DNA from: a candidate division WS6 bacterium GW2011_GWF2_39_15 | GTDB lineage: Bacteria; Patescibacteriota; Dojkabacteria; SC72 | DNA length: 64,000 nucleotides | Direction: 5' to 3' | Assembly (NCBI GenBank): GCA_000993565.1 | Contig: LBWK01000001.1 | Coordinates: 198,409 to 262,408, forward strand | Shown: piece after piece, positions 2,862-43,489 of the stretch | Layout: every line of letters starts with the position of its first letter | Numbering within the stretch: position 1 is the first letter of the stretch | Notes under the pieces: generated by a model | What the model saw: the letters and a program-made list of their open reading frames with translations, nothing else | Databases searched by the model: none | What the model was told of the DNA's origin: nothing | Program-made: the position numbers and the translations under genes

Positions 2862-3740
2862 ATGATAAAGCATTCACAAAACTTTCTGCTTAACCCGCAT
2901 CTGGTATCCCGACTGGTAGATACGATGGATATACAAACTGGAGACACTATAATTGATATTGGTGCTGGTGAAGGTATCATAACAGAAGCTCTACTAGAAC
3001 GATTTCCTCAAATAGGAACGATCATGGCGGTTGAAATAGATAAAGAGCTCTCTTCAAGATTAGAAACACGATTTGAGAATAATCTAAAAGTCGGAATCGT
3101 GAATCAGGATATTCTTGACTTAAGCTTGCCGAAAAATGAATTCAAAGTCGTTGCTAATATCCCATTTAATATAACCTCATCAATTCTCAACATACTTTTA
3201 AACCCTGAAAATAGTATGTCAAAAGCATATATAGTAATCCAGGAAGAGGCCGCAGCAATGTATGGAGGAGATAGAGTTTACGGGGAGGAAAGCTTGAAGT
3301 CCCTACTGGCTTATCCATATTACGACTTTCAAATTGCACACTATTTCAAGTCGCATGATTTTGTTCCGGAACCCCAAATTAATATTGTCCTTCTAGAAAT
3401 AACCAGAAAACAGCCTCCACTAATATCTCTGAATCAGTTTCTGACCTATCGTGATTTTATAACTTTTGTATCAAAAGACCGAGTAGGAGAAGGAGCATGG
3501 AAAGGTCTATTTCGGCAAAAGAGTCAGGCTTTTTTTAAGAGGATGGGACTTAAGCTTGGAGCCGGTATCAAACAACAAAGTGTTGACGCAATTCTTTCTG
3601 CATATAAAAGCTTTACGGTTTACGAATCAGAAGATAAAAAGTTTTATATAAAAGGAGCATACGAAAAACACCTTCAAGAGCAAATAAAGATTGCCAAAGT
3701 AAACAGGACAAGGCGTGACAGGACCTGGCACACAAAATAA
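2862..3740 (+). CDS. rsmA: rRNA adenine N6,N6-dimethyltransferase, KsgA/Dim1 or Erm family
   Basis: SQNFL, DIGAGEGIIT (SAM motif I), NIPFNITS; cannot separate KsgA from Erm by eye. Confidence 0.55.
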   Translation: MIKHSQNFLLNPHLVSRLVDTMDIQTGDTIIDIGAGEGIITEALLERFPQIGTIMAVEIDKELSSRLETRFENNLKVGIVNQDILDLSLPKNEFKVVANIPFNITSSILNILLNPENSMSKAYIVIQEEAAAMYGGDRVYGEESLKSLLAYPYYDFQIAHYFKSHDFVPEPQINIVLLEITRKQPPLISLNQFLTYRDFITFVSKDRVGEGAWKGLFRQKSQAFFKRMGLKLGAGIKQQSVDAILSAYKSFTVYESEDKKFYIKGAYEKHLQEQIKIAKVNRTRRDRTWHTK

Positions 3741-3809
3741 CGTTTTCTAAGTATTTCCAAACCTATAACTATTGTTTAGTGATAAATACAATCCTGTAAT
3801 ATATTTCTC

Positions 3810-3838
3810 TTGACCCTTTATTTCCCCGATGCTAGATT
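3810..3838 (+). promoter_or_regulatory. Sigma70-like promoter for mraZ operon: TTGACC, 17 nt, TAGATT
   Basis: Hexamers and spacing read directly; position just upstream of mraZ. Confidence 0.45.
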
Positions 3839-3878
3839 AGTGGTGAATAGTGGTGAGCATTGGTGAAAGGTGATACAA
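3839..3878 (+). promoter_or_regulatory. Direct repeats of TGGTGA at 10-bp spacing (three copies plus a fourth GGTGA at 8 bp); putative MraZ operator
   Basis: agTGGTGAat agTGGTGAgc atTGGTGAaa GGTGA lies between the -10 element and the mraZ start, matching the known arrangement of MraZ-box direct repeats. Confidence 0.45.
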
Positions 3879-3886
3879 TTCTAAAC

Positions 3887-4327
3887 ATGATTATAGGAGA
3901 GTACAAAACTAAGGTAGGGGAGAAAAAAAGAATTGCCATTCCCAAGAAGTTCAGAAATGAACTGGGAGAAAACCTAATACTCACCCGAGGTTATGAAAAA
4001 TGTCTGGTGCTAGTAAGTGAAACACAGTGGAAAGGAATAGCATCTGAAGTTATAAACGGCTCTTTTATAAATCGTGATATCAGAGATACTAGCCGATTCC
4101 TGGTTGGAAGTGCAAATGAGGTCATTCCAGATTCTCAAGGTAGAATAGTAATCCCACAGCCCCTCTATGACCATGCTAATTTCACTGACGAGGTCATATT
4201 TTTGGGTTTGGTTAATTGGATTGAAATCTGGTCGAAAGAAGAGTGGGAAAAAAGACTTGAATACCTTGAAACAAATGGAGATCAAATTGCGCAGGAGCTT
4301 TCTAAACTATCTGGCAAAACACAATGA
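3887..4327 (+). CDS. mraZ: Transcriptional regulator MraZ
   Basis: Two MraZ half-domains (IPKKFR..., VIPDSQGRIVIPQPL); the ORF is open from a TTG at 3860, but ATG 3887 (MIIGEY) fits the MraZ N-terminus. Confidence 0.85.
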   Translation: MIIGEYKTKVGEKKRIAIPKKFRNELGENLILTRGYEKCLVLVSETQWKGIASEVINGSFINRDIRDTSRFLVGSANEVIPDSQGRIVIPQPLYDHANFTDEVIFLGLVNWIEIWSKEEWEKRLEYLETNGDQIAQELSKLSGKTQ

Positions 4328-5193
4328 AGTCATACCATACACCAGTTCTCCTCACTGAATCAATAGTAGCACTCAATATAAAGCCCAGAGGAGTTTATGT
4401 TGACTGTACTTTGGGAGAGGCCGGACATAGTTTTGAAATATTCAAAAGATTAGAAAGCCAAGGAAAGCTTATAAGTATAGACCAAGACCAAAGTGCTCTT
4501 TCATATGTCAAAGAGAAATACTCGAAGGAGATAGCACAAGGAAACTGGATTATAGTTAAAGGCAATTTCAGCAATCTCAAGCAAATATGCATGGATATGC
4601 AGATTGAGAAAGTCGATGGTATTTTAATGGACCTCGGACTCTCATCAAGACAGCTTGAGGAAGAAGGAAGAGGGTTCAGTTATAATACACCCTCAGAATC
4701 CTTAGATATGCGTATGGATACAGATCTAGGAGTTACGGCAGATGACTTGCTTAAAGGTTTGAATGCTACAGAGCTTGAGAAACTATTCAGGCTTTATGGA
4801 GAGGAAAGATTTGCAAAAAGAATTGCCATACAAATTAAAAAATCTGATATCAAAACAGTTGGAGATCTCACAAGCCTTATCTACAGAGTTGTACCGGCAA
4901 CGAAACGTAGAGAGGACAGCCATCATCCTGCTCGCAGGGTCTTTCAGGCCCTGCGCATAGCAGTAAATGATGAAATCAATGCCCTCAAAAAGGGATTAGA
5001 TGAAGCTTATGAGCTCTTAAACAGTAACGGAAGATTATGTGTAATAACTTTTCACTCTTTAGAAGACAGAGAAGTAAAAAGGTTCTTCGAGAATAAGGGT
5101 GCAAAAGACTCTCAGGCAGTACAGCCGACGCCTGAAGAGATTGAAGTAAACAACAGATCAAGAAGTGCAAAACTAAGAGTTTTAGAAAAATAA
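4324..5193 (+). CDS. rsmH: 16S rRNA m4C1402 methyltransferase RsmH (MraW)
   Basis: HTPVLL...VYVDCTLGEAGHS N-terminus, conserved synteny after mraZ, ATGA overlap. Confidence 0.9.
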   Translation: MKSYHTPVLLTESIVALNIKPRGVYVDCTLGEAGHSFEIFKRLESQGKLISIDQDQSALSYVKEKYSKEIAQGNWIIVKGNFSNLKQICMDMQIEKVDGILMDLGLSSRQLEEEGRGFSYNTPSESLDMRMDTDLGVTADDLLKGLNATELEKLFRLYGEERFAKRIAIQIKKSDIKTVGDLTSLIYRVVPATKRREDSHHPARRVFQALRIAVNDEINALKKGLDEAYELLNSNGRLCVITFHSLEDREVKRFFENKGAKDSQAVQPTPEEIEVNNRSRSAKLRVLEK

Positions 5194-10464: not shown

Positions 10465-10998
10465 ATGTGGAATGGAATAATCATATCAGTCTTTTTTCTC
10501 TTAATTCTTTTCTTTCTGGGAATAATCCTTACCTCGATAACCTCATTCTTCCTTGTCCCCATATACTTTACCCCAGTAAAACTGCTTAAAGAGATTTCTC
10601 AGATAATTAATCCTCAAAACGGAGATAATGTAGTAGATCTAGGATCAGGTGACGGACGCATTCTGTTCTCCCTCTCTGACATTGCAAAGATAAAGGCTTA
10701 TGGATATGACATATCGCCAATCATGATTATCTTTTCCAAAATCAGAATGATATATACTCTGAGATTAAATCGGGATATCACATTTGATGTAATGAGCATA
10801 TTTGATATACCGCTTAAAAAGTTTGATATCGTATATTGCAATTTAAATTCCAAGGTTATGCAGATACTCGGTAAGAAGTTCGAGAAAGAACTGAAAGGGA
10901 CTACAGTTTACAGCTATAATTACGAAATAGAGAAAAAGAAGATAAATAAAACTTATACATTGAGCAACGGAGTCAAACTATTTGAATATAAGTACTAA
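10465..10998 (+). CDS. Class I SAM-dependent methyltransferase with an N-terminal TM anchor
   Basis: VVDLGSGDGRI (motif I) and DIVYCNL (motif IV-like); the ORF is open from 10399, but ATG at about 10465 is preferred; divergent from the hydrolase gene, with starts overlapping at a TCATGA. Confidence 0.55.
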   Translation: MWNGIIISVFFLLILFFLGIILTSITSFFLVPIYFTPVKLLKEISQIINPQNGDNVVDLGSGDGRILFSLSDIAKIKAYGYDISPIMIIFSKIRMIYTLRLNRDITFDVMSIFDIPLKKFDIVYCNLNSKVMQILGKKFEKELKGTTVYSYNYEIEKKKINKTYTLSNGVKLFEYKY

Positions 10999-10999
10999 G

Positions 11000-11593
11000 A
11001 TGAATCCTGAATTGCGCCTTCTTAAGTCAGAAATAATACGTTTATGCTCATATCCTCGGTTTATTCATCATCAATGGTTTGTGAAGTACCATCTTGAAAT
11101 AGTAGAAAGAATTGTAAATGAAGCTTGTCAATTCTATCCTAAGGCAGATCAGGAATTACTTCAGGGTTTAATTTGGATGCATGACTACGCAAAAATTGTT
11201 GATTTTGAAAAGAAAGATGACTTTACAGTTTTCGAAAAAGCAATTCCAATGCTCACAAGTTTCGGGTTCACCACAGATTATATTTCAAGGCAGATGAAAG
11301 CCCTCAGTCAGATTGAAAACAAGCTGAAAGAGGATATTAATAAAGCACCACTAGAAGTTAAAATCCTATCATCAGCTGACGGTGCCTCTCACTTTTTCGG
11401 TCCATTTTTTGAGATATACTTCGCAGAAAACAGCTCACTGCCGATTGAAGAACTAATGCTGAGTAACCTTAAGAAAATAGATAAGGACGTTACAAGGAAA
11501 ATCGTTATTCCCGAGATAATGAAGGCAGTTCAGACCAGAATTAAGTTCCTAAAAGAGCAAAACGGAATCTTACCTAAGCGATATCTTTCATAA
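11000..11593 (+). CDS. HD-domain phosphohydrolase
   Basis: HH...WMHDYAK metal-binding pattern; start 1 nt after the preceding stop (translational coupling). Confidence 0.55.
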   Translation: MNPELRLLKSEIIRLCSYPRFIHHQWFVKYHLEIVERIVNEACQFYPKADQELLQGLIWMHDYAKIVDFEKKDDFTVFEKAIPMLTSFGFTTDYISRQMKALSQIENKLKEDINKAPLEVKILSSADGASHFFGPFFEIYFAENSSLPIEELMLSNLKKIDKDVTRKIVIPEIMKAVQTRIKFLKEQNGILPKRYLS

Positions 11594-14631: not shown

Positions 14632-14899
14632 TTTACTCTTTTCAGATCTTTATATATAATAAACCTGTTCTTTCCAACTAACAAACTGTGAAGGAGAAAC
14701 AGTAGAGAGTAGTGGTGACATTAAGAGAAAGGTTGTCTGTTGCAAAACCTTCGTACACTATGGTCTCGAATTACACTCTGGAGTTTTAATATCAATGAGT
14801 CCCACTAACTTATAGTGGGAAAAGTAAAGTGGTACCGCGTTTATACACGCCTTTACATATATCTAAAAGATTAGGTATATGTAAGGGCGTTTTTGTTTT
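14632..14899 (+). promoter_or_regulatory. T-box riboswitch leader of tyrS, Tyr UAC specifier: promoter, Stem I region, Stem III, antiterminator/terminator switch
   Basis: T-box core AAAGUGGUACCGCG at about 14826-14840. Antiterminator A1 AAAG/CUUU, 7-nt bulge UGGUACC (UGGU matches the tRNA-Tyr discriminator A), A2 GCGU/ACGC. Mutually exclusive 15-bp terminator hairpin (ACGCCTTTACATATA / TATATGTAAGGGCGT) followed by TTTTGTTTT, ending 26 nt before the tyrS ATG. AGAGAG motif and cgUACAc specifier candidate at about 14754. Stem III hairpin CCCACT/AGTGGG just 5' of the T-box sequence. Putative promoter TTTACT, 17 nt, TATAAT at 14632-14660. Confidence 0.7.
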
Positions 14900-14924
14900 A
14901 AATAAACTATGATACATTAAATAC

Positions 14925-16115
14925 ATGGTAAAAACTGATGAGAAGATAATTAACAGAATCCTTAACAAAGCCGTTGAGGAAATACTCCCAACTAAAGAGG
15001 AACTTAACAAGCTTCTACACTCAGGAAAGAGAATAAGAATATACCAAGGATTTGACCCTACTGCTCCCACTCTCCATATTGGACACACTGTAATGATGAG
15101 AAAGCTTGAAGATTTTAGAAAGCTGGGACACGAGGTAATCTTTCTCATGGGAAACTTCACAGGCATGATCGGGGATCCAACGGATAAAGCCGCAGCCAGA
15201 AAACAACTAACCATAGAGCAGGTAAATGAGAATTTAAAGCTATATAAAGAGCAGGCAAGCTCAATCATTGATATCGACAATCCTGAAAATCCAGTTCAGA
15301 TCCTATATAACTACGACTGGTTAAGCAAGCTCAGTTTCGCAGACGTTGTTGAACTGGCAAGCCAGTTTACAGTCCAGCAGATGCTAAAAAGAAGCATGTT
15401 CCAGAAGAGACTGGAAGAAGATAGACCCATCGGACTGCATGAATTCCTCTACCCGCTAATGCAGGGATATGATTCCGTAGCTATGGATGTTGATGTCGAA
15501 GTAGGGGGGAATGATCAGCTCTTTAATATGCTGGCAGGAAGAACACTTGTAAAAGCCTTAAAGAACAAAGAGAAAATCGTAATAGCAGGCAAACTCCTTA
15601 CAACTGCTGAAGGAGCTAAGATGGGCAAATCGGAGGGCAATATGATCATGCTCTCAGACTCTTCGGAAAATATATATGGCAAAGTAATGGCGTTTCCTGA
15701 TGAACACATTGTACCCGGGTTTGAGCTTCTCACATCGATGGAACTTGAAGAGGTTGAAGACATTAAGCAGAAATTAGAAAAGGGAGAGAACCCAGTGGGA
15801 CTGAAAAAGCAGCTTGCCCACCAACTCACCAAAGAACTAAAAGGTGAGGGAGCCGCCGATGCCGCTCAAAAATACTTTGAAGAGATATTTCAAAATAAAA
15901 GCTTTGAAACAGATATAGAAACATTCAAAGGAATCGGAAAAAACGTTCTAGACATAATGACTGAATCAGGAATATGCAAGAGCAAAGGTGAAGCAAGGAG
16001 ATTAATACAACAGAATGCCGTAAAACACGAAAACACTCTTATAACAGATTCCACACAAGTAATCTCAGCACAAGGGATTCTAAAAGTAGGCAAACAGGTC
16101 GTTAATATAGTATAA
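14925..16115 (+). CDS. tyrS: Tyrosyl-tRNA synthetase (with C-terminal S4-like domain)
   Basis: HIGH motif (TLHIGHTV), KMSKS-like motif (KMGKSEGN), S4-like C-terminus. Confidence 0.9.
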   Translation: MVKTDEKIINRILNKAVEEILPTKEELNKLLHSGKRIRIYQGFDPTAPTLHIGHTVMMRKLEDFRKLGHEVIFLMGNFTGMIGDPTDKAAARKQLTIEQVNENLKLYKEQASSIIDIDNPENPVQILYNYDWLSKLSFADVVELASQFTVQQMLKRSMFQKRLEEDRPIGLHEFLYPLMQGYDSVAMDVDVEVGGNDQLFNMLAGRTLVKALKNKEKIVIAGKLLTTAEGAKMGKSEGNMIMLSDSSENIYGKVMAFPDEHIVPGFELLTSMELEEVEDIKQKLEKGENPVGLKKQLAHQLTKELKGEGAADAAQKYFEEIFQNKSFETDIETFKGIGKNVLDIMTESGICKSKGEARRLIQQNAVKHENTLITDSTQVISAQGILKVGKQVVNIV

Positions 16116-16205
16116 TCACTCCCAATATGAAAACAACCAAACCTATCACAATGTTAATTTGCCTTAAGCTACAGCCATAGGGGTTATATTAAACTGATAT
16201 ATACA

Positions 16206-16230
16206 CCCCTACGAAAGTAGGGGTTTTTGT
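16206..16230 (+). terminator. Rho-independent terminator after tyrS
   Basis: CCCCTAC-GAAA-GTAGGGG followed by TTTTTGTT. Confidence 0.6.
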
Positions 16231-16233
16231 TAA

Positions 16234-21446: not shown

Positions 21447-24400
21447 ATGATGGAGGATAATCTGCTCAAAAAGAAACAATTTAAGAGTGCTCTCATTAAA
21501 CTGTTCTTTGCACTACTAGTTCTTATACCCATCCTCACTTATTCGCTTTATACAGCGTATACAAATCCTAAACCGAGAATTGTAACAACACCCGAATCCT
21601 CTAATTATATGTTTGAAGCTCAAAATAGCGTATACAAAGCAAAATTGGGGCAGAAGGGCACTGGGATTCCAATCATCCAATTTCAAACAAACAAAGGGAA
21701 ATCAATTGAATTTGCATATGTATCCGAATCACAAAGCGGACAGATTCAGACTGAAACAAAAAATAGATCAATCCTCTTTAATAATGTAGAACAAATGATC
21801 GACCTTGAATATATAATGCTTGAAAACGGTGTCAAAGAAAATATTATTCTTAGAGAAAAGGTAGATAAAACCACTTTCTATTTCAAGACAAATACTCATG
21901 ATTTAGTTATAAAAAAACACTACACCGAAGCAGCACCATCCTTTTACGATGAGAATGGATCATATCTTTTTAACATTGAAAAAGGGTATGCAGTTGATGC
22001 CTTAGGTAAGAGAACTGAAAATGTACAGATAGATTTGGTAAAGGATCCTGACGGACAGCCATATATACGAGTGCGTATAGATCCAAAGTGGCTGAATAGT
22101 CCCTCAAGAAGATACCCAGTAAGGATAGATCCAACCTTGGTGCATGACACAACCTCGGAGTTCTCGGAAGGTCAATTCAATCGCATCAAAGATACTGGCT
22201 CCGGATCTTCACCTATACTCCAAACATACTACCAGCCACCGAACTCCGACCTTTCAACAGTAGGTCTCTGGCATTTTGACGAGCCTTCAGGGAATGTTCT
22301 TGATTCATCCGGATATAGTCAGACGGGTACTCCGACTGGGACAACTGTCGACACCAGCAGCATATTGGGAAACGCCAGAATATTCAACGGAACATCAGAC
22401 TATATAACAGTAAATGATACATCCGAACTTAGAGCCGTTGGAGCCATAACGATCGAAGTCTGGATTAAGTCAACAGGATCAAATGACTACTCGGGAATTG
22501 TCTATAAGCGTGTAGGCAATAATGGATATCAAATGGGTTTAAACACCAATGGAGGAGTCCGTGCGGATCTCTATAATGGCTCAACTTGGGCAACAGTAAC
22601 CAATTCCACAAATGTAGAGGATGGGCAGTGGCATCATGTAGCAACAACCTACGATGGAATAAGTGCCCTTATCTACGTAGACGGGAAACCTGGAAACCCA
22701 CTCCAGGCGACATCGTATGTGACATCAAGTGCCGCAAACCTGCTCATAGGAAACGACTCTGGAGCGGCTAACAGATTTTTTAACGGAGAAATAGATGAAG
22801 TAAGAATAAGTAATAGGGCACGATCAGCAGAGGAAATAAAACTAGATGCTCAAAAAAGGCCCTATTCTACATTCACATCCAATGTCCTAGATCTGGCTGA
22901 TGTTATAAGCTGGAACTCACTAAGCTGGAGTGAACTTGGAGTAAATACTGGAGGAGGAGAAACCCTAAAAGACTCCTCAAATGTAGTTGCTCATTGGAAG
23001 TTAAACGAAACCTCAGGAACAAGTGCAAATAATGATGCAGAAGGGACTAGTTGTGGCGGGACTCCAGGTAACTGTGATGGAACTCTAATAGGGGTTGACT
23101 CTACAACAAGTCAGGATAGTGACTTAGACTCAAGCTGGACTGCCAATAACCGCAGATGGGGAGAGGGGGCACTTCAACTTGATGGTGTAAATAGTTACGT
23201 TGAAGTAGCCGATAATAACGCGATCAGTTTTGGCAACGGAGTAACAGACACTCCATTTAGCATCTGTTCATGGATTAACCCTATCAGTGCGACCAGTTTT
23301 ATAATCGCCGCAAAACAAAGTGTAACAGCAGACATTCGCGAATTCACTTTTTCATTACGAGCTGAAGAAGATCTCTCGCTAATCCTTTTTGATGATAACG
23401 GGGCAAACCAGATAGAGAAAGTAAGCAATATAAAATTCGCTCAGGATGAAGGCCAGTGGGTTTACGTCTGTAGCACATATGACGGAAGCGGAAGCGTGAA
23501 TGGAATCAAACTTTATAGAAACGGAATTCAGCTTCAAACATTCAGTGATAATGCAGGCACGTATACAGCAATGAGCAATACCGCTCAGAAACTATTTTTA
23601 GGATGGAACGGTACCGGTGGAACAACATATGCAAAAGGCATGATGGATTCGACGTACATGTACCAACGAGAACTATCAGCATCAGAAATCCTGTCAAACT
23701 ACAATACGGGGAATATTAATATTCAAACAAGAGTAGGGACTGATAGCACACAAGATGACGGTTCATGGGAAGAATGGAAACCTAATAGTAGTGAAACGGC
23801 CATAGAATCAATGGACCTTTCCAGTAAATGGAGTGTTCCAAATACTAATGAAAACATACTTTTGAACGACTCGAACGAGGCGGACGTCGGAGACGGTGCC
23901 GATGGGGCACTAAGCCCGAGTGGCACATTTAACCTTAACACATCTACATCCGGGAGTAGAACATATGCTGATGGAATAGCTTATCAGATAGCTTCTAATC
24001 CGACCGGCAATTCAATAGTCACAGTTGATACACCCAACGGGATAGCTGCTGGCGACGAAATTCTCCTTATAAACCTAAGAGGATCTACAACTGACTTCCG
24101 TGATGCCGGCAATTACGAGTTTCTAGAAGTCCAAAGTGTCAACTCCGGCACAAAAACAATAACTACCACAAACCCTATACAGAAACCATACGGTGGAAAC
24201 ACCTTTTCAAACCAAAAGGTCGCTATACAAAGAGTTCCAAATTACACAAGTGTAACACTGGATTCAACAGACTCAATTACGTCATCTGCTTGGGATGCTT
24301 TTGCAACTACTCCTACCGGGTCAGCAGGATACCAAACAGGAATTGTTGCTTTTAGAGCGAATGGCACTGTGACAATAGGAACCGGAACAACCATTAGTAC

Positions 24401-27400
24401 CAACTATTTGGGATATCTGGGTGGTAATACTACAACAATAGGCGGTAAAGGTGGAGAGGCATATTGTGGAGATGGAGGAGCAGGTTCAAACACAGAGGGT
24501 GTCCCAGGAAGTGCAGGCGCAGCAGGTGGCGGTGGATACGGAGGAACAGGTGTTCTCAATCCTACAGGAAATGCAGGAGGGGCAGGTTCATGCGGTGGTG
24601 GTGGTGGTGGTGGACGAGGAGGAAATGCGGGAAGTGGAAGTACAACTCGCGGTGGTGCGGGTGGTGGTGGTGGATACAAAGATAATGCGGCAGGACAAAC
24701 TGGAGCTGGAGGAGGAGCAGGATATGGAAATCCTGGAACAGGTGGTGGTGGATATGGAGCGAGTGGGGGAACAGGTGGATTTGATGTCAGCGGAAATGGT
24801 GGTACAGATGGCGGTGGAGGAGGTGGTGGTGGTACTTATGGAGATTATCAACTTAATAGAATATATCTAGGGGCAGGGGGAGGCATGGGAGGAAGCAATG
24901 GAGGAACAGGCTCCGGGGTTGGAGGGAAGGGTGGAGGGATTATTTTTATTTCTGCAAACACTTTGACCAATAGCGGTTCGATAACCTCAAATGGACAAAA
25001 CGGATCAAATGGGTCTACAAGCTTTAAAGCTCCGGGTGGTGGTGGAGCAGGAGGAAGTATATTTATACGAGCAATGTCAGTTACTTTAGGAACCAATGGA
25101 GCTACCGCAGCTGGAGGATCTGGAGGAACACTATATGAAAGGGTGGCTGGTAACGGTGGGAAAGGGAGAATTAAACTGGTAGCACAAAGCCTTACAGGGA
25201 CATCCGATCCTCAAGCAACAATAAACCAAATTTCATCCTCTAATGTCAAACAGGAAGGATCTAGTTCAATAAGCATAAAGAGCGGACAATTGAACGTAGA
25301 TAGTTTTACAACCTCACTTTGGCATCTTGATGAGACAGGAGGGAATGGAGCATACTTAAAAGACTCAACAAACAACTCTAATCACCTTACTCCGACAGGT
25401 ACAGTCCCCGAAAAAGGGATCTCACAAAAGTCCAGGGATCTCAACGGGACAAGTGACTTCATGTCTATAAGTTCACCAACAGGATTACCATCAGGATCAT
25501 CTGCAAGAACCATTGAACTTTGGGTAAAACCTGACAATACAAACCCTGGCGGTGCTCTTGTACACTGGGGTGATGGAACAGGTGGAGGGCAGGAATTTGC
25601 TCTGCAATTAGGAACCATATCTGGCACCTGTTACCTTTTTTCTGATGGAATCAACGGAACAAACAATATAACAATCTCAGGGGCAGAAATCCCCGCAAAC
25701 GGCAGGTGGTCGCATATCGCTTTTACGAAGGACTTGGGAAGCAACTGGAAATACTATTTGAATGGCACCTTAACTAAAAGTGGATCATTTGCGGTAACTA
25801 TAAATACTTCAACTCCTAATATCCTTAACATTGGAGAAAGAACCGATGTCGCTTCAAATAACTTCCCGGGCTTAATGGACGAGATAAGAATCTCAAATAT
25901 TGAGAGAACCGCCAGGGAAGTTGCAGAAGATTACAGGGCAGGTAGAGATCATTATTTAAATTTAAATTTGAATAGTGCTAACCTGAACACTCAAAGCACA
26001 CTTCCATTCTATATTGCAGCTGATAAACCTGGAACATATCTTGAAAGCATTGTGGGGGAATCTGCCTATGCAAATAATCTAACAGACGGAAACACATTAG
26101 GTTTGTGGCACCTTGAAGAACAAAGTGGAGCGGGAGCTTTTCTAAAAGACAGTAGTGGCAATGAAAATAATGGGACACCGACATCTTTAACAATGGCTAC
26201 AGGGAAAATCGGAAAAGCAAGAAGCTTTGTCGCAGGAACAAATTACATTAATTTAGGAAGTCCATCAGCCTACGGCGGCCTTACCGCATTCACAATTGAG
26301 GCCTGGATCTACCCAACTTCTGTCTCAGGTCAACACAGGATATTTGACCGCGGCTCCTCAGGCAGTCCAAATGTCCTCCTTTTATACCAGGAAAGCGCCG
26401 CAATCAGGCTTCTCGTAAATAATACGGATTTAGTAACCACTTCAGACGTTTTAACAGTTAATCAGTGGTACCATGTAGTGGCAGTATACACCGGCTCTGG
26501 AGGAGAAAAGGCTATTTACGTAAATGGTGTGAAAGTCGCTACAGGGACATCGACCCAAAGTTCAGTAACAGCTGGAAGCCTGGCTACATGGATAGGATGT
26601 CCATCGTGGGGAACATGTTCTACATACGTTTTCAACGGTATTATTGACGAAGTCAGACTTAGTAATGTTGCACGCAGCTCAGAATCTATAAGACAAGCTT
26701 ATGAAATAAATCGCAGATCACATAATATCACAATAGATTTTGGTGCGGCATTGCACTTCAGTAATCTTATAACGAGTAGCAGCGATACCTCCTTTACCAT
26801 TGATGCCACATACTATGGACTTCAGAATAAAGGATCAAACCTCTACCTGGGAGATAAAATAATTGTTCAGGAAAATTACGACGGAACAGTTTATACGGCA
26901 CAAGGAACAGTGAGCTCAGTGAATACTTCCACAGGGGCCGTGCTTGTCTCAGGGTGGGAAAATGGCAGTACTTTTCCTCCAACCGCAGGTTTTTCTTCAA
27001 ATGCCTCAGTATTTAAATGGCAGAGAGAATACTGGCCGCTACAGAATGTATCTCAGGATTCACACATAGATACTACTTCTGTCTTTACATTAAGATTTAC
27101 AGACGGAAGCGAAGGAAGAAATGTCTGGATCGACGATCTCAAATCTAGCGGAGAATACCTAACAACACCAACAGGATCGGCAATAGCGTCCTCAGTCGAG
27201 AATAGGTACATACAATACAAAGCTCTTTTAATTTCGGGTGATTATAACACTTCACCCTCACTAAGCACCGTTGAATTAGACTGGGACTCAAACAGTCTGC
27301 CCGGAGTTCCAACTCTAGATACGCCAACCAATCTTTCTGTCGGAAATATTCTTAAACCAGCACTTAAAACAACTGCGACAGATGCAGATTTAGATTATTT

Positions 27401-29891
27401 AAGATATAAGATAGTCCTTTGTCAAAATGTGGATATGACAATCGGCTGCCAGACTTTTAATCAGACGCTTTCACAAACAGGATGGAGCGGACAAAATGCA
27501 GAAGGTAACACTGCGTATTCATCAGGCACTCAGGCGACATATACTCTGCAATCCGATCTCAAAGCCGGTGGAACCTACTACTGGAAATCTTATGCCATTG
27601 ACCCGGGAGGTAGGAATGATTGGGGATATTCGCAAACTTCTCCGTACCATTTTGGAATAAACTCGAAACCACGGTCTACAAATTCCAATGAAGTTCAATC
27701 ATTCATAGCTCGAAGGGAAAGCTCATTCCCAAGTCTTAGTACAGGATGGACAAGCATTACAGGCTCTGCCGAGAGCGGTACAACAGCCTCTTCTAACGGT
27801 TGGATTGCAGGCACCAACTTTACAGTAGGAGATCAATACCTTTTAATGGTGTGGGGGGAGCATCAGGCAGACAACGTAGGATCTCAGAGCGGAATCCGTG
27901 TTACCCACGGAGGAACACCTTTCTCAGAATCTGAAACTGTCGAACAATCAGATCAAACAGATTCGTCTCATAAAACACCATACTACTGGTTTACAGTCTG
28001 GACAGCGACAAACGAAGCAGTGGAAACGGAAGTTTATTGGAGCGGAACGAGTGGAAGCGAAGCCCGAGTTGAGGATGTGACACTTGTAGCTCTAAATGTA
28101 ACTGATCTCATAGACAATAACTATTTTAAATACAATATCTCCAACACAGGTGGAACTCTAAACACTAGCTATGCACAGAAAGCCCATTTATCTTTTTCAC
28201 CTTCAAATAATAATGATCTTTGGTGGATAATGGGATATTCAAAAGCTGACGTTGTTTCAACAGCAGGTTCCAAATATCAAGCACAGCTAAATATTGATGG
28301 TCAGAATCTTTCTCATCAGGTTATTAAAGGGGTAAATGCCTCAGATACTCCTCTTTATGGACTTGGTCATGTTGCTGAGTTAACAACAGACACTCATATT
28401 ATAGACCTGGAATTAAAAGAATCTTTGGCTGACCAAGAGTGGGACAGTGCTGGAGTCTTTGCACTCAATCTTTCATATTTTGATTCCTATCTAGGTACAA
28501 CGAAAACAGGAACAGGAACTTCGATGTCCACACCATCAAATTGGGTCGGGCAAACCAGTATAGATCCAATAAGCCAATATCAGGGTCGTTATATTATCGC
28601 TGGTGGAGGTGTCGTTGCAGATGCAGGAGGCAGAGTCATCGGCCGTATCCAAAATAGTGGATCAAATATAACCGATGATGCAGGAGGATGGAGCCATGAC
28701 AATGCGGATTATCAGCCGCTTACACTAGGAGATGTTCAAAATGCTTATACAATTGGGTTAAAATCTCTAACACTTGATACTCAAACAACACAGGTTGGGA
28801 CCTCATGGGTAGAGGACGCATGGATGGTAGGATTCTCGCTGGAGAAAAACGGAAACGGACCACAACTAAATCTTCCGGCAGATAATGCTACAAATCAAAG
28901 TGTTCGCACTCAGTTAAAACTCACAGCTATTGACCCAAATAACGATACATTAAAATACAAAATTGAACTCTGCCAAAATGAGGCTATGACACTCAGCTGT
29001 CAAACTTTCGACCAAACAGCAACGCAAACGGGTTGGAGTGGTCAGAATGCCGCAAGTTTCACCCGATATACATCGGGTACACAAGCTACTTACACCCTTC
29101 AAACTGATCTAGCTGTTAATACAGAGTATTTCTGGAGAGGATATGCAAAAGATCTTGACGGGACCAACACCTTTAGTAGTCCAAGCTCAATCTTTTCTTT
29201 TACAACAACAGTTTCGCCAAATGCTCCAACTTCAATTGAAATCGAGGGCACAGCTTCCCCTCAAGAAGTGACCGACACGACCCCGGAATTCAGTGCCATT
29301 CATACAGATACAAATAGTGACGCTGCTAACTATTATGAGGTGGAGGTAAATACACTGCCGACATTCGCCGGGACTATCAAATGGGATTCAGGTAAAACGG
29401 CAATGACATCAACGCCAAGTACTAATAGATCCCCTCTAATTACATATGCGGGATCATCACTATCAGTAGACGGAAGTACATACTATCTTAGGATAAGATT
29501 CTGGGATACAAACGAAGCCGTAAGCCCATGGTCGGCAACTTCTTCCTTTAGAATGGACGCTCTCGAAATCCCGCTTGCTTGTCGCATAATCGACAGCGAT
29601 TCTACAGATACAACGATCCAAATACTATGGACGGATACAAACACAGTAGAAGATGGATATAAAATACAACGAAGCGTAAATGGAGGAGCTTTCGGTGACC
29701 TAATCTCTAAACCAGCAGATTCAACAAGCCATTCAGACTCAATTTCAGCGGGAAACACATATAGATACAGGATAGCTGCAACTCTCTCACCGTTTACAGG
29801 ATCATGGTGTACAACCTCAACCGCAGATGTTCATCAGGGAAGTATGCAGATAAACGGTAACTTCCAGATAGGAGGGATAACCTTCAAATAA
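21447..29891 (+). CDS. Giant (2814 aa) surface protein: N-terminal signal anchor, four LamG/ConA-like modules, a Gly-rich beta-helix-like tract, two Cys-pair FN3-like repeats, C-terminal FN3-like domains
   Basis: Four repeats of the pattern LWHFDE/LWHLDE...G...NG... ending in DEVRISN (Laminin_G_3-type); Gly-rich 985-1250 aa; duplicated 120-aa module with YYW/YFW and CQN...C; uninterrupted 8.4 kb ORF. Confidence 0.85.
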   Translation: MMEDNLLKKKQFKSALIKLFFALLVLIPILTYSLYTAYTNPKPRIVTTPESSNYMFEAQNSVYKAKLGQKGTGIPIIQFQTNKGKSIEFAYVSESQSGQIQTETKNRSILFNNVEQMIDLEYIMLENGVKENIILREKVDKTTFYFKTNTHDLVIKKHYTEAAPSFYDENGSYLFNIEKGYAVDALGKRTENVQIDLVKDPDGQPYIRVRIDPKWLNSPSRRYPVRIDPTLVHDTTSEFSEGQFNRIKDTGSGSSPILQTYYQPPNSDLSTVGLWHFDEPSGNVLDSSGYSQTGTPTGTTVDTSSILGNARIFNGTSDYITVNDTSELRAVGAITIEVWIKSTGSNDYSGIVYKRVGNNGYQMGLNTNGGVRADLYNGSTWATVTNSTNVEDGQWHHVATTYDGISALIYVDGKPGNPLQATSYVTSSAANLLIGNDSGAANRFFNGEIDEVRISNRARSAEEIKLDAQKRPYSTFTSNVLDLADVISWNSLSWSELGVNTGGGETLKDSSNVVAHWKLNETSGTSANNDAEGTSCGGTPGNCDGTLIGVDSTTSQDSDLDSSWTANNRRWGEGALQLDGVNSYVEVADNNAISFGNGVTDTPFSICSWINPISATSFIIAAKQSVTADIREFTFSLRAEEDLSLILFDDNGANQIEKVSNIKFAQDEGQWVYVCSTYDGSGSVNGIKLYRNGIQLQTFSDNAGTYTAMSNTAQKLFLGWNGTGGTTYAKGMMDSTYMYQRELSASEILSNYNTGNINIQTRVGTDSTQDDGSWEEWKPNSSETAIESMDLSSKWSVPNTNENILLNDSNEADVGDGADGALSPSGTFNLNTSTSGSRTYADGIAYQIASNPTGNSIVTVDTPNGIAAGDEILLINLRGSTTDFRDAGNYEFLEVQSVNSGTKTITTTNPIQKPYGGNTFSNQKVAIQRVPNYTSVTLDSTDSITSSAWDAFATTPTGSAGYQTGIVAFRANGTVTIGTGTTISTNYLGYLGGNTTTIGGKGGEAYCGDGGAGSNTEGVPGSAGAAGGGGYGGTGVLNPTGNAGGAGSCGGGGGGGRGGNAGSGSTTRGGAGGGGGYKDNAAGQTGAGGGAGYGNPGTGGGGYGASGGTGGFDVSGNGGTDGGGGGGGGTYGDYQLNRIYLGAGGGMGGSNGGTGSGVGGKGGGIIFISANTLTNSGSITSNGQNGSNGSTSFKAPGGGGAGGSIFIRAMSVTLGTNGATAAGGSGGTLYERVAGNGGKGRIKLVAQSLTGTSDPQATINQISSSNVKQEGSSSISIKSGQLNVDSFTTSLWHLDETGGNGAYLKDSTNNSNHLTPTGTVPEKGISQKSRDLNGTSDFMSISSPTGLPSGSSARTIELWVKPDNTNPGGALVHWGDGTGGGQEFALQLGTISGTCYLFSDGINGTNNITISGAEIPANGRWSHIAFTKDLGSNWKYYLNGTLTKSGSFAVTINTSTPNILNIGERTDVASNNFPGLMDEIRISNIERTAREVAEDYRAGRDHYLNLNLNSANLNTQSTLPFYIAADKPGTYLESIVGESAYANNLTDGNTLGLWHLEEQSGAGAFLKDSSGNENNGTPTSLTMATGKIGKARSFVAGTNYINLGSPSAYGGLTAFTIEAWIYPTSVSGQHRIFDRGSSGSPNVLLLYQESAAIRLLVNNTDLVTTSDVLTVNQWYHVVAVYTGSGGEKAIYVNGVKVATGTSTQSSVTAGSLATWIGCPSWGTCSTYVFNGIIDEVRLSNVARSSESIRQAYEINRRSHNITIDFGAALHFSNLITSSSDTSFTIDATYYGLQNKGSNLYLGDKIIVQENYDGTVYTAQGTVSSVNTSTGAVLVSGWENGSTFPPTAGFSSNASVFKWQREYWPLQNVSQDSHIDTTSVFTLRFTDGSEGRNVWIDDLKSSGEYLTTPTGSAIASSVENRYIQYKALLISGDYNTSPSLSTVELDWDSNSLPGVPTLDTPTNLSVGNILKPALKTTATDADLDYLRYKIVLCQNVDMTIGCQTFNQTLSQTGWSGQNAEGNTAYSSGTQATYTLQSDLKAGGTYYWKSYAIDPGGRNDWGYSQTSPYHFGINSKPRSTNSNEVQSFIARRESSFPSLSTGWTSITGSAESGTTASSNGWIAGTNFTVGDQYLLMVWGEHQADNVGSQSGIRVTHGGTPFSESETVEQSDQTDSSHKTPYYWFTVWTATNEAVETEVYWSGTSGSEARVEDVTLVALNVTDLIDNNYFKYNISNTGGTLNTSYAQKAHLSFSPSNNNDLWWIMGYSKADVVSTAGSKYQAQLNIDGQNLSHQVIKGVNASDTPLYGLGHVAELTTDTHIIDLELKESLADQEWDSAGVFALNLSYFDSYLGTTKTGTGTSMSTPSNWVGQTSIDPISQYQGRYIIAGGGVVADAGGRVIGRIQNSGSNITDDAGGWSHDNADYQPLTLGDVQNAYTIGLKSLTLDTQTTQVGTSWVEDAWMVGFSLEKNGNGPQLNLPADNATNQSVRTQLKLTAIDPNNDTLKYKIELCQNEAMTLSCQTFDQTATQTGWSGQNAASFTRYTSGTQATYTLQTDLAVNTEYFWRGYAKDLDGTNTFSSPSSIFSFTTTVSPNAPTSIEIEGTASPQEVTDTTPEFSAIHTDTNSDAANYYEVEVNTLPTFAGTIKWDSGKTAMTSTPSTNRSPLITYAGSSLSVDGSTYYLRIRFWDTNEAVSPWSATSSFRMDALEIPLACRIIDSDSTDTTIQILWTDTNTVEDGYKIQRSVNGGAFGDLISKPADSTSHSDSISAGNTYRYRIAATLSPFTGSWCTTSTADVHQGSMQINGNFQIGGITFK
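24400..25200 (+). repeat. Low-complexity GGN-codon tract encoding the Gly-rich segment
   Basis: Runs of ggtggtggtgga / ggaggagga; this is what generates the spurious Pro-, Arg/Trp- and Ser/Thr-rich shadow ORFs on other frames. Confidence 0.6.
27300..27660 (+). repeat. Internal duplicated module, copy 1 (FN3-like with conserved Cys pair)
   Basis: About 50% aa identity to copy 2: DYLRYKIVLCQNVDMTIGCQTF...TGWSGQNA...SGTQATYTLQSDL...YYWKSYAIDPGG. Confidence 0.5.
28850..29210 (+). repeat. Internal duplicated module, copy 2
   Basis: DTLKYKIELCQNEAMTLSCQTF...TGWSGQNA...SGTQATYTLQTDL...YFWRGYAKDLDG. Confidence 0.5.
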
Positions 29892-31859: not shown

Positions 31860-33635
31860 ATGGCTAATTCAAACGTAAACTTAGAAAACATCCCAGAAAT
31901 AGAAAAGATGCGGCATACAGCCTCTCACATACTTGCTCAAGCTGTACTTAAGTACTACCCAGATGCAAAACTTGGTATTGGACCTGCAATTGATGACGGT
32001 TTCTACTACGATTTCCAGTTCAATGAACCAATTACAGACGAAGACCTCCAGCAGATTGAAAAAGAGATGAAGAGAATCATTGATGCAAACCTTCCCCTTA
32101 CACAATCCTTCATGAAAAGAAAGCAGGCTGAAAAATTTTTTAAGGAAAAAGAACAGAGATTTAAGATTGAACTCCTTAGAGACATTCCGGATAAAGAATT
32201 AAGCTTCTTTACAACCGGTGAGAATCAATTTGTAGATATGTGCCGAGGTCCCCATGTAGAATCAACTGGTAAGGTGGGAGCGGTCAAACTGATGAGCTTG
32301 GCAGGAGCATACTGGAGAGGCAATGAAAAGCAGCCCATGCTAACCCGAATCTATGGACTGGCGTTTAAGACTCCTAAAGAGCTTCGCAAACATATTACGA
32401 TGCTAGAAGAAGCAGAGAAGCGAGACCACAGAGTAGTAGGTAAGAATCTTGGCCTTTTCGTATTCTCCGATCTTGTAGGAAAAGGACTCCCGCTTTGGAC
32501 TGCAAAAGGTGCGACCGTTAGGAGAGAATTGGAGAGATTCATTGTTGATGAGGAACTCAAAAGAGGGTATCAGCATGTATATACTCCGGATATAGCAAAG
32601 ATAGATCTGTATAAAACCTCAGGTCACTACCCATATTATAAAGACTCAATGTATGCACCTATAAAAATTGATGAGGAAGAGTTTATGCTTCGCCCTATGA
32701 CATGTCCTCATCACTTTGAGCTCTACAGATCACAAAAACGAAGCTATAGAGAATTACCTATGAGAATTGCGGAGCTTGCTAAGTTATACCGATATGAAAA
32801 AAGCGGTGAGCTTACCGGGCTCATGCGGGTAAGGAGTTTCTGCCTTGCTGATGCACATATAGTAGCCATGCCAAGTCAGGCCGAGGAAGAGATAAACCAA
32901 GCCCTAGACCTTATAGAATACGCTTCTCAGGTATTTGGTTTAAAAGCTAATGAAGATTACAGGTATCGATTATCTCTGGGAGATAGAAACAACTCTGAGA
33001 AATACTATAAAGATGATGCTGCGTGGGATTTTGCAGAAAATGTATTAAGAGAGGTCCTCAAGAAGCGTGATGTAGAGAGCTATGAAGCTCCGGGAGAGGC
33101 CGCATTTTACGGCCCGAAGATTGATATACAGATGAAGAATACTGTAGGGAAAGAAGATACTGCATTTACAGTACAGTATGACTTTGTAATGCCAAAACGA
33201 TTCGATCTTAAATATGATGACGAAAAAGGTGAGGAGAAAGAGCCTATTGTTATCCACAGATCTTCAATCGGAGCAATAGAAAGAATTATGGCCCTCCTTA
33301 TAGAGAAGTATGCAGGGGCATTTCCTTTATGGTTGGCACCTGTACAGGCAAAGATCCTTCCAATTTCAGATTCTCACAACAAGTACGCTCAGGAGATAAC
33401 TCAAAGGCTTCAGGAGACTGGATTTAGGGTAGTTCTTGATAACAGAAATGAGACCCTGCAGTATAAGATCAGAGACGGAGAAGTAAATAAAGTCCCTTAT
33501 CTGGCAATAGTCGGGGACAAGGAGATAGGAACTCAGACAGTTTCTGTTAGGTCACGTGGAAGCAAAGAGATAGGTCTTATGAAAATAGATGAGTTCATAC
33601 AATCGTTGCAAAAAGAAATTGCTAACAAATCTTAA
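31860..33635 (+). CDS. thrS: Threonyl-tRNA synthetase (no N-terminal TGS domain)
   Basis: Editing-domain motif RHTASHILAQAV; class II core; anticodon-binding C-terminus. Confidence 0.9.
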   Translation: MANSNVNLENIPEIEKMRHTASHILAQAVLKYYPDAKLGIGPAIDDGFYYDFQFNEPITDEDLQQIEKEMKRIIDANLPLTQSFMKRKQAEKFFKEKEQRFKIELLRDIPDKELSFFTTGENQFVDMCRGPHVESTGKVGAVKLMSLAGAYWRGNEKQPMLTRIYGLAFKTPKELRKHITMLEEAEKRDHRVVGKNLGLFVFSDLVGKGLPLWTAKGATVRRELERFIVDEELKRGYQHVYTPDIAKIDLYKTSGHYPYYKDSMYAPIKIDEEEFMLRPMTCPHHFELYRSQKRSYRELPMRIAELAKLYRYEKSGELTGLMRVRSFCLADAHIVAMPSQAEEEINQALDLIEYASQVFGLKANEDYRYRLSLGDRNNSEKYYKDDAAWDFAENVLREVLKKRDVESYEAPGEAAFYGPKIDIQMKNTVGKEDTAFTVQYDFVMPKRFDLKYDDEKGEEKEPIVIHRSSIGAIERIMALLIEKYAGAFPLWLAPVQAKILPISDSHNKYAQEITQRLQETGFRVVLDNRNETLQYKIRDGEVNKVPYLAIVGDKEIGTQTVSVRSRGSKEIGLMKIDEFIQSLQKEIANKS

Positions 33636-34827: not shown

Positions 34828-35865
34828 ATGGAGTTTAAAAACCAAGATATAAAAAATACATACGATAAGTTCAATGAAGATACAAACTCTCTGCCTCTAA
34901 AGGAGCTCACCGCTAAATACCTCGGAAGAAACAGCCTCGTAAAAGAACTCCTTGCTAAGATCAAAAACATTCCCGACGACCAGAAAAAAGAGTACGGCCA
35001 GCAAGCAAATGAATTAAGCAGGTATATTGAGGAAAAACTCGAGCAGATAAGCAATACCCCGATTTTTCAGGGAACAAAGGAGTACATTGATCCCACAGCA
35101 CCATTTGATATTAATCAGAACAACAGTTCAGAAGTATATCCTAAGGGGTTAGAAGGAACCAAGAACCCTTTGACTCAGGAAATGGATAGAGTATTGGATA
35201 TATTCAAACAGATGGGTTTTGATATTATAGAATCAAGGCAGCTTGATGATGACTACCATATGTTCGAGACATTAAACATTCCTAAAGGTCACCCGGCCAG
35301 AGATATCTGGGATACCTTTTGGACAGAAGAAGGCCTGATTCCCCCTGCTCACACTTCAACCATGCAAAATAGAGTCATGAAAACAGCAGGACAGCCACCT
35401 GTAAGGTGCGTAATACCGGGTATGTGCTATCGAAATGAAGCCACCGATGCCTCACATGAACATACCCTTTTTCAAATTGAAGGAGTATATGTTGATAAAA
35501 ATATTTCCGTAGGCGATATGCTTGGAACAATTAAAACATATCTTGAAGCATTCTTCCAAACAAAACTTGAAATTAAAGTTCAGCCTGCATACTTCCCATT
35601 CACAGAACCAGATATGGAATTTGTAATATCATGTCCGTTCTGTAAAAAGACCGGATGTAAAGTATGTAAGTATTCCGGATGGATGGAATTAATGGGATGC
35701 GGTGAAATTAATCCCTTTGTACTCAGAGAAGCAGGAATTGACCCAGAAGTATATTCCGGGTTTGCATGGGGTTTCGGATTGGATAGGTTAGTAATGGTAA
35801 AAAATGGAATACAGGATGTAAGAAGGTTTCGAAGCGGTGATCTTAATTTCTTAAAGCAGTTCTAA
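34828..35865 (+). CDS. pheS: Phenylalanyl-tRNA synthetase alpha subunit
   Basis: AYFPFTEPDMEF, GWAFGFGLDRLVM class II motifs. Confidence 0.9.
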   Translation: MEFKNQDIKNTYDKFNEDTNSLPLKELTAKYLGRNSLVKELLAKIKNIPDDQKKEYGQQANELSRYIEEKLEQISNTPIFQGTKEYIDPTAPFDINQNNSSEVYPKGLEGTKNPLTQEMDRVLDIFKQMGFDIIESRQLDDDYHMFETLNIPKGHPARDIWDTFWTEEGLIPPAHTSTMQNRVMKTAGQPPVRCVIPGMCYRNEATDASHEHTLFQIEGVYVDKNISVGDMLGTIKTYLEAFFQTKLEIKVQPAYFPFTEPDMEFVISCPFCKKTGCKVCKYSGWMELMGCGEINPFVLREAGIDPEVYSGFAWGFGLDRLVMVKNGIQDVRRFRSGDLNFLKQF

Positions 35866-43411: not shown

Positions 43412-43489
43412 GGTGACTATAGCTCAACTGGTTAGAGTTCCTGTTTGTGGAACAGGAGGTTGCGGGTTCGAATCCCGTTAGTCACCCCA
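43412..43489 (+). tRNA. tRNA-His (GTG anticodon) with encoded G-1 and CCA; coordinates may lie up to 8 nt further right
   Basis: Cloverleaf read by hand: G-1 plus acceptor GTGACTA/TAGTCAC, D-arm GCTC-AACTGGTTA-GAGT, anticodon arm CCTGT-TTGTGGA-ACAGG, T-arm GCGGG-TTCGAAT-CCCGT, discriminator C, CCA. Confidence 0.85.

Follow-up and report, generated by a model that had tools for sequence, protein, structure and literature searches.

Does the tyrosyl-tRNA synthetase gene (tyrS) of a bacterium from the Candidate Phyla Radiation (CPR) answer to a tRNA-sensing riboswitch, and if so, to which kind? The question is raised by a 64,000-nucleotide stretch of contig LBWK01000001.1 (positions 198,409 to 262,408) from candidate division WS6 bacterium GW2011_GWF2_39_15, hereafter the window and numbered from its first letter, in which a first-pass annotation made from the letters alone had proposed a canonical tyrosine T-box at 14632-14899. 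Our analysis indicates that this tyrS leader is very probably a transcription-attenuating T-box riboswitch that senses tRNA-Tyr charging and controls tyrS in Candidatus Dojkabacteria (CPR/Patescibacteria). A T-box of tyrosine specificity is indeed what the leader holds, to judge from a match to the Rfam T-box leader family RF00230, a UAC specifier, a UGGU bulge and tyrS itself downstream; its architecture, however, departs from the canonical form for this gene.

RF00230 aligned over its full length (model positions 1-219) to window positions 14679-14857 on the forward strand, on which all elements described below lie, with a score of 90.3 bits. The E-value is 1.5e-20 when only the leader is searched and 2.4e-18 when both strands of the whole 64-kb window are. 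The first-pass annotation had named this family as the one to check, and the outcome depends on the yardstick: the match is highly significant by E-value but fails the family's gathering score of 93 bits. Because of that shortfall, a scan of the window at gathering thresholds, as opposed to E-value reporting, listed one tRNA only and left the tyrS T-box out. RF00230 found no second T-box in the window at E≤0.1, despite the presence of genes for ThrRS (31860-33635), PheS (34828-35865), PheT (35866-38319) and HisRS (44876-46156), so tyrS has, as had been stated, the only aminoacyl-tRNA synthetase leader with a T-box in this stretch. Matches to microRNA, CRISPR-DR and trpB-motif families in the local Rfam scan all fell far short of the respective gathering thresholds and were dismissed as chance resemblances to the A/U-rich terminator hairpin.

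The gene downstream places the host. tyrS (14925-16115) encodes a 396-aa protein with a tRNA-synt_1b domain (PF00579, 5.5e-70) and a TyrRS C-terminal domain, which is 78% identical to the TyrRS of a Candidatus Dojkabacteria metagenome-assembled genome (locus L001), 55-70% identical to about 30 other Dojkabacteria-type proteins and 43-54% identical to those of other Patescibacteria. The nearest relatives are thus Dojkabacteria, in line with the CPR-like host that the gene context had suggested. The exact TyrRS protein occurs on nine contigs, the longest of 721,202 bp (groundwater metagenome, PRJNA268031) and with the same gene neighbourhood as the window. Three further contigs, from three different sample accessions, carry the entire leader without a single difference, which rules out an assembly chimera or a sequencing error. 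Two related leaders, at L001 and L056, are 73-77% identical to it; a second copy of the L056 leader from a metagenome, L161, gave the same blastn statistics and Rfam alignment as L056. The set used for covariation accordingly comprised three distinct leaders (window, L001 and L056), and its statistics are modest with so few sequences.

The RNA element begins near 14679, so the proposed extent, correct in its essentials, takes in at its 5' end a stretch (14632-14660) that is instead a sigma-70-type promoter (TTTACT-17 nt-TATAAT, 10 of 12 consensus matches), alignable in L001 and in two more distant relatives, L012 and L005; the transcript would start near 14667. Stem I, the tRNA-decoding arm, occupies 14685-14784 in the RF00230 alignment, and its pairs are kept in all three leaders, with compensatory changes in helices 1, 3 and 5. 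The same alignment identifies a K-turn (UGUGAA at 14687-14692 with GGA at 14780-14782, that is, UGA/GGA) and an S-turn (AGUA at 14701-14704 with GAA at 14768-14770) that is invariant in the relatives. The AG bulge, AGAGA at 14724-14728, matches the consensus exactly; the AGAGAG box previously assigned this role (14704-14709) overlaps the S-turn AGUA and the next helix. A distal loop at 14735-14745 agrees with the class consensus at 9 of 11 positions. In the window it reads GUCUGUUGCAA, as against G(G)nUGGAGnAA in L001, L056, L012 and L005, and all four contigs that bear the identical leader show both G-to-U changes (14736 and 14740).

The covariance model places the specifier, UAC (Tyr) followed by the conserved 3' purine A, at 14772-14775, 52 nt upstream of the T-box core and in a GAA-U-UAC-A specifier-loop context; its amino acid matches the downstream gene, tyrS. 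A UAC is therefore presented in the specifier loop of Stem I (14772-14774), as expected, but it is not the candidate put forward about 80 nt upstream: that UAC-A, at 14754-14757 (about 72 nt upstream), belongs to the paired 3' strand of distal Stem I. The specifier context GAAUUACAC is the same in the window, L001, L056, L012 and a further relative, L003, and reads GAAUUACCC in L005; GAAUUAC is common to L012, L005 and L003.

What follows Stem I is where the leader parts company with the textbook tyrS T-box. In the simple subtype, whose prototype is glyQS, a single-stranded linker leads directly to Stem III, whereas the complex subtype, with Bacillus subtilis tyrS as its prototype, adds Stem II and a Stem IIA/B pseudoknot (PMC5570125). 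The window leader has an unstructured 15-nt linker (14785-14799; 0.0 kcal/mol when folded), and the 40-nt segment that Rfam assigns to Stem II has 0 nt aligned in it. The leader therefore combines tyrosine specificity with a glyQS-type chassis, and the label "canonical" does not hold, there being no Stem II and no Stem IIA/B pseudoknot. Stem III, an 8-bp hairpin at 14800-14820 followed by AA (-10.8 kcal/mol), does lie directly 5' of the T-box as described, with four pairs changed on both sides among the three leaders.

The switch itself comes next. The 14-nt conserved T-box core, AAAGUGGUACCGCG, lies at 14826-14839 within an antiterminator (14824-14856) recovered by both the RF00230 alignment and folding: helix A1 (6 bp; 14824-14829 with 14851-14856), a 7-nt bulge UGGUACC (14830-14836) and helix A2 (4 bp; GCGU/ACGC, 14837-14840 with 14847-14850), all as first described, the hairpin alone folding to -5.5 kcal/mol. 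Within the bulge, UGGU (14830-14833) is complementary to the tRNA 3' ACCA and implies discriminator A; bacterial tRNA-Tyr carries an A73 discriminator. Downstream lies an intrinsic terminator (14847-14899), a 20-bp stem (14847-14890) followed by the U-tract UUUUUGUUUU (14890-14899), with a folding energy of -27.3 kcal/mol and a z-score of -8.7 against shuffled sequences. Its 5' arm includes the 3' strands of A2 and A1, which makes antiterminator and terminator mutually exclusive and confirms that the UGGUACC bulge sits in a fold that competes with the terminator. The earlier account of the terminator was right about this shared strand, the U-tract and the tyrS ATG at 14925, but the stem has 20 bp and not 15 bp. 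Over 14800-14900, the terminator state is predicted at -38.9 kcal/mol and the antiterminator state at -18.6 kcal/mol; with a gap of about 20 kcal/mol, the modelled energetics are those of a default-off arrangement.

These parts suggest a familiar sequence of events. Transcription would begin at the promoter at 14632-14660, and Stem I would then offer UAC 14772-14774 to the tRNA-Tyr anticodon while the AG bulge and the distal loop dock on the tRNA elbow. With uncharged tRNA, the 3' ACCA would pair with UGGU 14830-14833 and stabilise the weak antiterminator, stacked on Stem III; as long as the antiterminator is held, polymerase would read through and tyrS would be expressed. With charged tRNA, the far more stable 20-bp terminator (14847-14890 plus U-tract) would form and transcription would stop 25 nt before the ATG.

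Could tRNA binding instead gate ribosome access to the tyrS start, rather than termination? Translational T-boxes of this sort exist in Actinobacteria (PMC7583486, PMC7778990), and only 34 nt separate the end of the terminator hairpin from the ATG. Such a design would nonetheless be hard to reconcile with the canonical U-tract after the hairpin, kept in 6/6 Dojkabacteria leaders, and with a start codon that lies outside the hairpin. Nor is there anything to sequester, as no Shine-Dalgarno (SD) motif was found upstream of tyrS and such motifs are rare in this genome (SD-like GGAG, GAGG or AGGA at -18 to -4 in 5 of 45 window genes). We consider translational control highly improbable, and the least likely of the alternatives weighed here. 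Transcription attenuation would act on tyrS only: the gene has an intrinsic terminator of its own (16205-16233; an 8-bp stem with 5 GC pairs at 16205-16224, then a T tract), making the regulated unit monocistronic.

We then asked what the related leaders say about the predicted fold. In the antiterminator state, 98.3% of cells in the alignment of the three leaders are paired, a figure that falls to 29-50% once the 3' partners are shifted by 1-3 columns, and in the terminator 96.6% of cells are paired in the relatives. Ten pairs, mainly in distal Stem I and Stem III, are changed on both sides, a number reached by 0 of 500 shuffles. Modest as they are, these figures are in accord with the family model. 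By contrast with these helices, the functional motifs are invariant in the relatives (K-turn GA, S-turn AGUA/GAA, AGAGA, the 19-nt T-box block and UGGU), and within the window's own clade, helices A1 and A2 and the 19-nt block around the bulge do not vary at all. Motifs that stay fixed while helices change by compensatory substitution point to selection on the fold. The RF00230 scores of the relatives are nevertheless uneven, at 75.1 bits for L056, 62.9 for L001, 68.5 for L003, 72.9 for L005 and 118.3 for L012; since most Dojkabacteria leaders, and L161 with them, fall below the gathering score, annotation based on that threshold under-reports them. L012 exceeds it, and some database annotations therefore probably exist already.

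How widely is the leader distributed? A regular expression for the core, applied to the 500 nt upstream of each tblastn TyrRS match, returned only L001 and L056 and so suggested a single tiny clade. This was refuted by a covariance model, R1, built from the three leaders and searched over the window and 70 Patescibacteria tyrS loci (511 kb), which added L012, L005 and L003. In these three, the T-box lies 800-1000 nt upstream of the TyrRS match, beyond the reach of the regular expression, because tyrS carries an N-terminal B3/4 extension there. In all, six species-level loci among the 70 Patescibacteria loci carry a tyrS T-box (window, L001, L056, L003, L005 and L012), and they fall in two neighbouring Dojkabacteria subclades. 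The R1 search found no T-box beside tyrS in about 60 other Patescibacteria loci or in two Chloroflexota loci (L052, L053); one weak match, at L048 (18 bits, E 0.06), was not confirmed by Rfam.

These leaders differ in precisely the part that the window's lacks. L012 (1951-2194) and L005 (1955-2198) have Stem II, with its GAA...AGUA, as well as Stem IIA/B, while the leader of L003 is compact. In a six-way alignment, the compact leaders are without one block of about 67 nt that corresponds exactly to Stem II plus Stem IIA/B, with conserved flanks on either side, and the terminators of L012, L005 and L003 are visibly homologous to the window's (…AUAUAUCUA…UAGGUAUAU…GGGCGUUUU). Compact and full leaders are thus homologous. 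In a neighbour-joining tree of TyrRS, the window groups with L001, L002, L056 and L161 (clade A, 76% bootstrap), and L005 with L012 (100% bootstrap). L002, though nested in the compact clade, has no leader, its upstream open reading frame (ORF) ending 10 nt before tyrS. The most economical reading of these sequences is that the ancestor of both subclades had a full tyrS T-box and that the whole leader was lost in L002 and L019. The compact form would then have arisen by deletion of about 67 nt from a Stem II-containing ancestor, Stem II having gone once in the window's clade and probably a second time in L003. Two facts pull against this history. On the TyrRS core, the node that unites L003 with L005 and L012 has only 44% bootstrap, although the B3/4 fusion is common to all three; and the case for loss of Stem II, rather than gain, is one of parsimony, together with the agreement of L012 and L005 with the family's general consensus.

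The fusion proteins deserve a word of their own. The tyrS ORFs at L012 (2257-4200), L005 (2248-4197) and L003 (2248-4209) encode 647-653 aa, with the T-box directly upstream, and start at the N-terminus with a B3/4 domain (about 250 aa; PF03483, E 5.6e-19 in L012) that is fused in frame to TyrRS; the domain is absent from the window's clade. B3/4 is otherwise known from the PheRS beta subunit, and here it may be an editing or tRNA-binding add-on. Elsewhere in the Dojkabacteria, the gap between tyrS and the gene before it is mostly 40-110 nt, a TATAAT lies about 10 nt from the ATG, and there is next to no leader. A conserved tyrS promoter, TTTGTAAA ... GAATATATAAT, about 60 nt upstream of the gene and with its -10 box ending about 8-12 nt before the ATG, is common to most of them (L004, L007-L009, L011, L013, L017, L018, L020, L022 and L023).

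Is a tyrosine T-box without Stem II peculiar to these bacteria? To look beyond them, we scanned metagenomes with the pattern GAATTACAC, 30-60 nt, RRRGTGGTACCGCG, a spacing too short for Stem II. The scan returned 102 compact Tyr T-box loci, most of them before tyrS, and these, Enterococcus among them, ruled out a layout unique to the CPR. All but one come from other organisms, with GC contents mostly of 26-42% (two contigs are at 54-55%), and the TyrRS behind these compact T-boxes is about 28-38% identical to the window's. Aligned to R1, the compact set gave 61 matches, including four Dojkabacteria leaders (window, L001, L056 and L003). Linkers in the 61 span 8-27 nt with a median of 15-16, close to the window's own 15, and the U before the codon (14771) is present in 61/61, partly by construction given that the search pattern demanded GAATTACAC. 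The simple subtype, judged by these sequences, is not confined to glycine. Compact T-boxes for other amino acids appear to be under-stated in the reviews that we covered, the 2008 comparative survey of Vitreschak et al. lying outside that coverage.

Two of the other loci illustrate the range of this set. L083 bears an Enterococcus-specific small RNA (RF02637, 459 bits) at 10837-11251 and a compact Tyr T-box (98 bits) at 2813-2988, without an obvious K-turn, that precedes an NhaC-family gene (3078-4523); this Na+/H+ antiporter-family gene presumably encodes a tyrosine transporter. About 35 of the metagenome matches share the 56-nt-gap form of L083, a group that precedes a gene other than tyrS. 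L080 has a compact Tyr T-box (UAC, UGGU) at 1253-1433 on the forward strand before tyrS and a compact Trp T-box (UGG, UGGC) at 4643-4825 on the reverse strand before trpS, with nearly identical terminators, which suggests a lineage in which leaders for aromatic amino acids habitually lack Stem II.

These loci also bear on where the Dojkabacteria leader came from. Rather than being an ancient CPR trait, it could have been acquired laterally by the ancestor of the subclades from a Terrabacteria donor (e.g. Firmicutes or Chloroflexota), given that six species-level loci of 70 in two neighbouring subclades make a restricted distribution and that T-boxes abound in low-GC Firmicutes. If so, gene and leader were not acquired together from donors of the kind sampled here, since the TyrRS belongs to the Dojkabacteria/Patescibacteria type and shares only about 30% identity with its counterparts downstream of non-CPR compact T-boxes. 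Moreover, the leader has no close non-CPR relative beyond the universal core, and the nearest non-CPR TyrRS loci, the Chloroflexota L052 and L053, are without a T-box. If lateral acquisition holds, the leader would have little to say on where the CPR is placed at depth; we rate it as a serious contender that falls somewhat short of an even chance. The leader had been called taxonomically informative, and so it is, weakly: it is limited to a small part of the Dojkabacteria and missing from about 60 other Patescibacteria tyrS loci, and a distribution so restricted cannot separate old vertical inheritance from lateral acquisition.

The same evidence allows us to weigh whether the leader still works, or is instead a decaying relic that no longer binds tRNA-Tyr productively and acts as a leaky constitutive terminator or an inert 5' untranslated region. 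Several observations count against a functional switch. The score is 2.7 bits short of the gathering score, with relatives lower still (75.1 and 62.9 bits). Stem II has been argued from structural work to be necessary to stabilise A/U-rich codon-anticodon pairs (PMC7583486); UAC:GUA is A/U-rich, and a leader without Stem II misfits that rationale. At the distal loop, 14736 is U in the window and G in 51/59 compact T-boxes (U in 2/59), and 14740 is likewise U where 47/59 have G (U in 5/59); loss of these two conserved G residues could weaken docking on the tRNA elbow. The 5' flank of Stem III, AUGAG (UUGAG in L001, ACAAG in L056), fits RRRxG only partially, although it does have the 3' AA. An ARAGORN search of the window and 36 related loci turned up no tRNA-Tyr gene, so that a GUA anticodon and A73 are presumed for this genome. 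Finally, most Dojkabacteria have no tyrS leader at all, and L002 has lost its leader from within the clade.

Against decay stands the pattern of invariant functional motifs and compensated helices, the mark of selection on the fold. A terminator of -27 kcal/mol ahead of an essential gene would, moreover, be strongly deleterious without antitermination. The layout recurs in 102 other compact Tyr T-boxes, most before tyrS, and the U at the 14740 position is shared by 5 other compact T-boxes. We therefore regard a relic as very unlikely, if a little less so than translational control, and retain a functional, transcription-attenuating T-box as by far the better account of the tyrS leader.

The leader is also out of keeping with its genomic surroundings. 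At about 258 nt, it is an exception in the window, where a TATAAT-like box precedes the start codon by 11-15 nt in at least 8 genes (45 starts examined; examples are 2862, 8123, 21447, 39182 on the reverse strand, 43038, 46193 and 53449). Together with the scarcity of SD-like motifs, this makes it seem, from the sequence of the window, that the genome runs largely on SD-less or leaderless mRNAs. Other features of the stretch can be noted in passing. The terminator after tyrS and its T tract end 5 nt before the ATG (16234) of a RelA/SpoT-homolog gene; the 118-nt spacer between the two genes folds to -23.6 kcal/mol and has no Rfam match, and a promoter-like TAGGCA-18-TATAAT lies inside the end of tyrS (16087-16116). 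The spacer may serve the stringent-response gene as an attenuator or leader of its own. The sole tRNA in the window is a tRNA-His (GUG) at 43413-43489, separated from hisS, 1.4 kb downstream, by an M20 peptidase gene. A 2814-aa ORF at 21447-29891, with matches to Laminin_G_3, pentaxin-like and Ig-like domains and the highest GC content in the window (0.446), probably encodes one of the giant surface proteins that are common in CPR episymbionts.

What does such a leader mean for these bacteria? Regulation in Patescibacteria has been called virtually unknown, with riboswitches mentioned only as tools, in a 2024 perspective (PMC11665869). Our full-text searches, over partial literature coverage, found no paper linking T-boxes with Patescibacteria, Saccharibacteria, Parcubacteria, Dojkabacteria or the CPR, and the TBDB paper does not mention candidate phyla. 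The mechanism is known, and nothing here changes it; the layout, too, belongs to a known subtype, its specificity being unusual though not unique, and is seen here in a lineage for which our searches found no description of it. Its interest is threefold. A T-box that looks to be in working order is placed in the CPR, in a genome with mostly leaderless, SD-less mRNAs and unable to make amino acids, which suggests that tRNA-Tyr charging is monitored in an obligate symbiont. One lineage holds orthologous leaders with and without Stem II, a natural comparison pair. And with 102 compact Tyr T-boxes at hand, a view that limits the simple subtype to glycine is too narrow.

A bolder proposal, which we advance only tentatively and think unlikely to hold in full, is that the Dojkabacteria represent a natural deletion series (Stem II and IIA/B in L012 and L005; none in the window, L001 and L056 or, probably independently, in L003) in which the compact forms are functional, so that Stem II would be dispensable for an A/U-rich codon. 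Were that so, tRNA-sensing riboswitch control would be established in ultrasmall, largely leaderless and SD-less CPR genomes, and the compact class would have to compensate for Stem II in some way not yet described. One candidate is a fourth pair between U14771 and an unmodified A37, as the genome may lack tRNA-modification enzymes; others are slower polymerase kinetics or a protein cofactor.

Set beside its closest relatives of the full form, at L012 and L005, the window leader has the same specifier context and T-box core, a recognisably homologous terminator with U-tract, and a gene of the same family downstream; the difference lies in the roughly 67 nt of Stem II (with its S-turn) and Stem IIA/B that those leaders keep and in the B3/4 domain of their tyrS. 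With the low-GC compact T-boxes exemplified by L083 and L080 it shares the absence of Stem II, the GAAUUACAC specifier context and a linker within the 8-27 nt range, yet the sequences are unrelated outside the universal motifs, the genes behind those T-boxes have SD sites, and some of them score above the Rfam cut-off (98-114 bits). The likeness to Bacillus subtilis tyrS extends to the gene, the UAC specifier and UGGU bulge, the K-turn, S-turn, AG bulge and distal loop of Stem I, and the Stem III, antiterminator, terminator and U-tract of a transcription-attenuation system, as the latter is predicted here; unlike it, the window leader lacks Stem II and IIA/B, scores below the gathering threshold, precedes a gene without an SD and belongs to a CPR host rather than a Firmicute. 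From glyQS of B. subtilis and Geobacillus it differs in its specifier, UAC with one G-C pair against GGC with three, and in its bulge, UGGU against the UGGA typical of Gly leaders, so that the published reason why glyQS can dispense with Stem II, its strong GGC:GCC duplex, does not hold for UAC. In overall plan, however, glyQS is the system it resembles, with Stem I, a linker, Stem III, an antiterminator and an intrinsic terminator (PMC5570125, PMC7583486), a linker of 15 nt against 13 nt in B. subtilis glyQS (PMC5570125), and a similar margin of terminator over antiterminator, about 20 kcal/mol in the window against about -16 kcal/mol in glyQS (PMC5570125).

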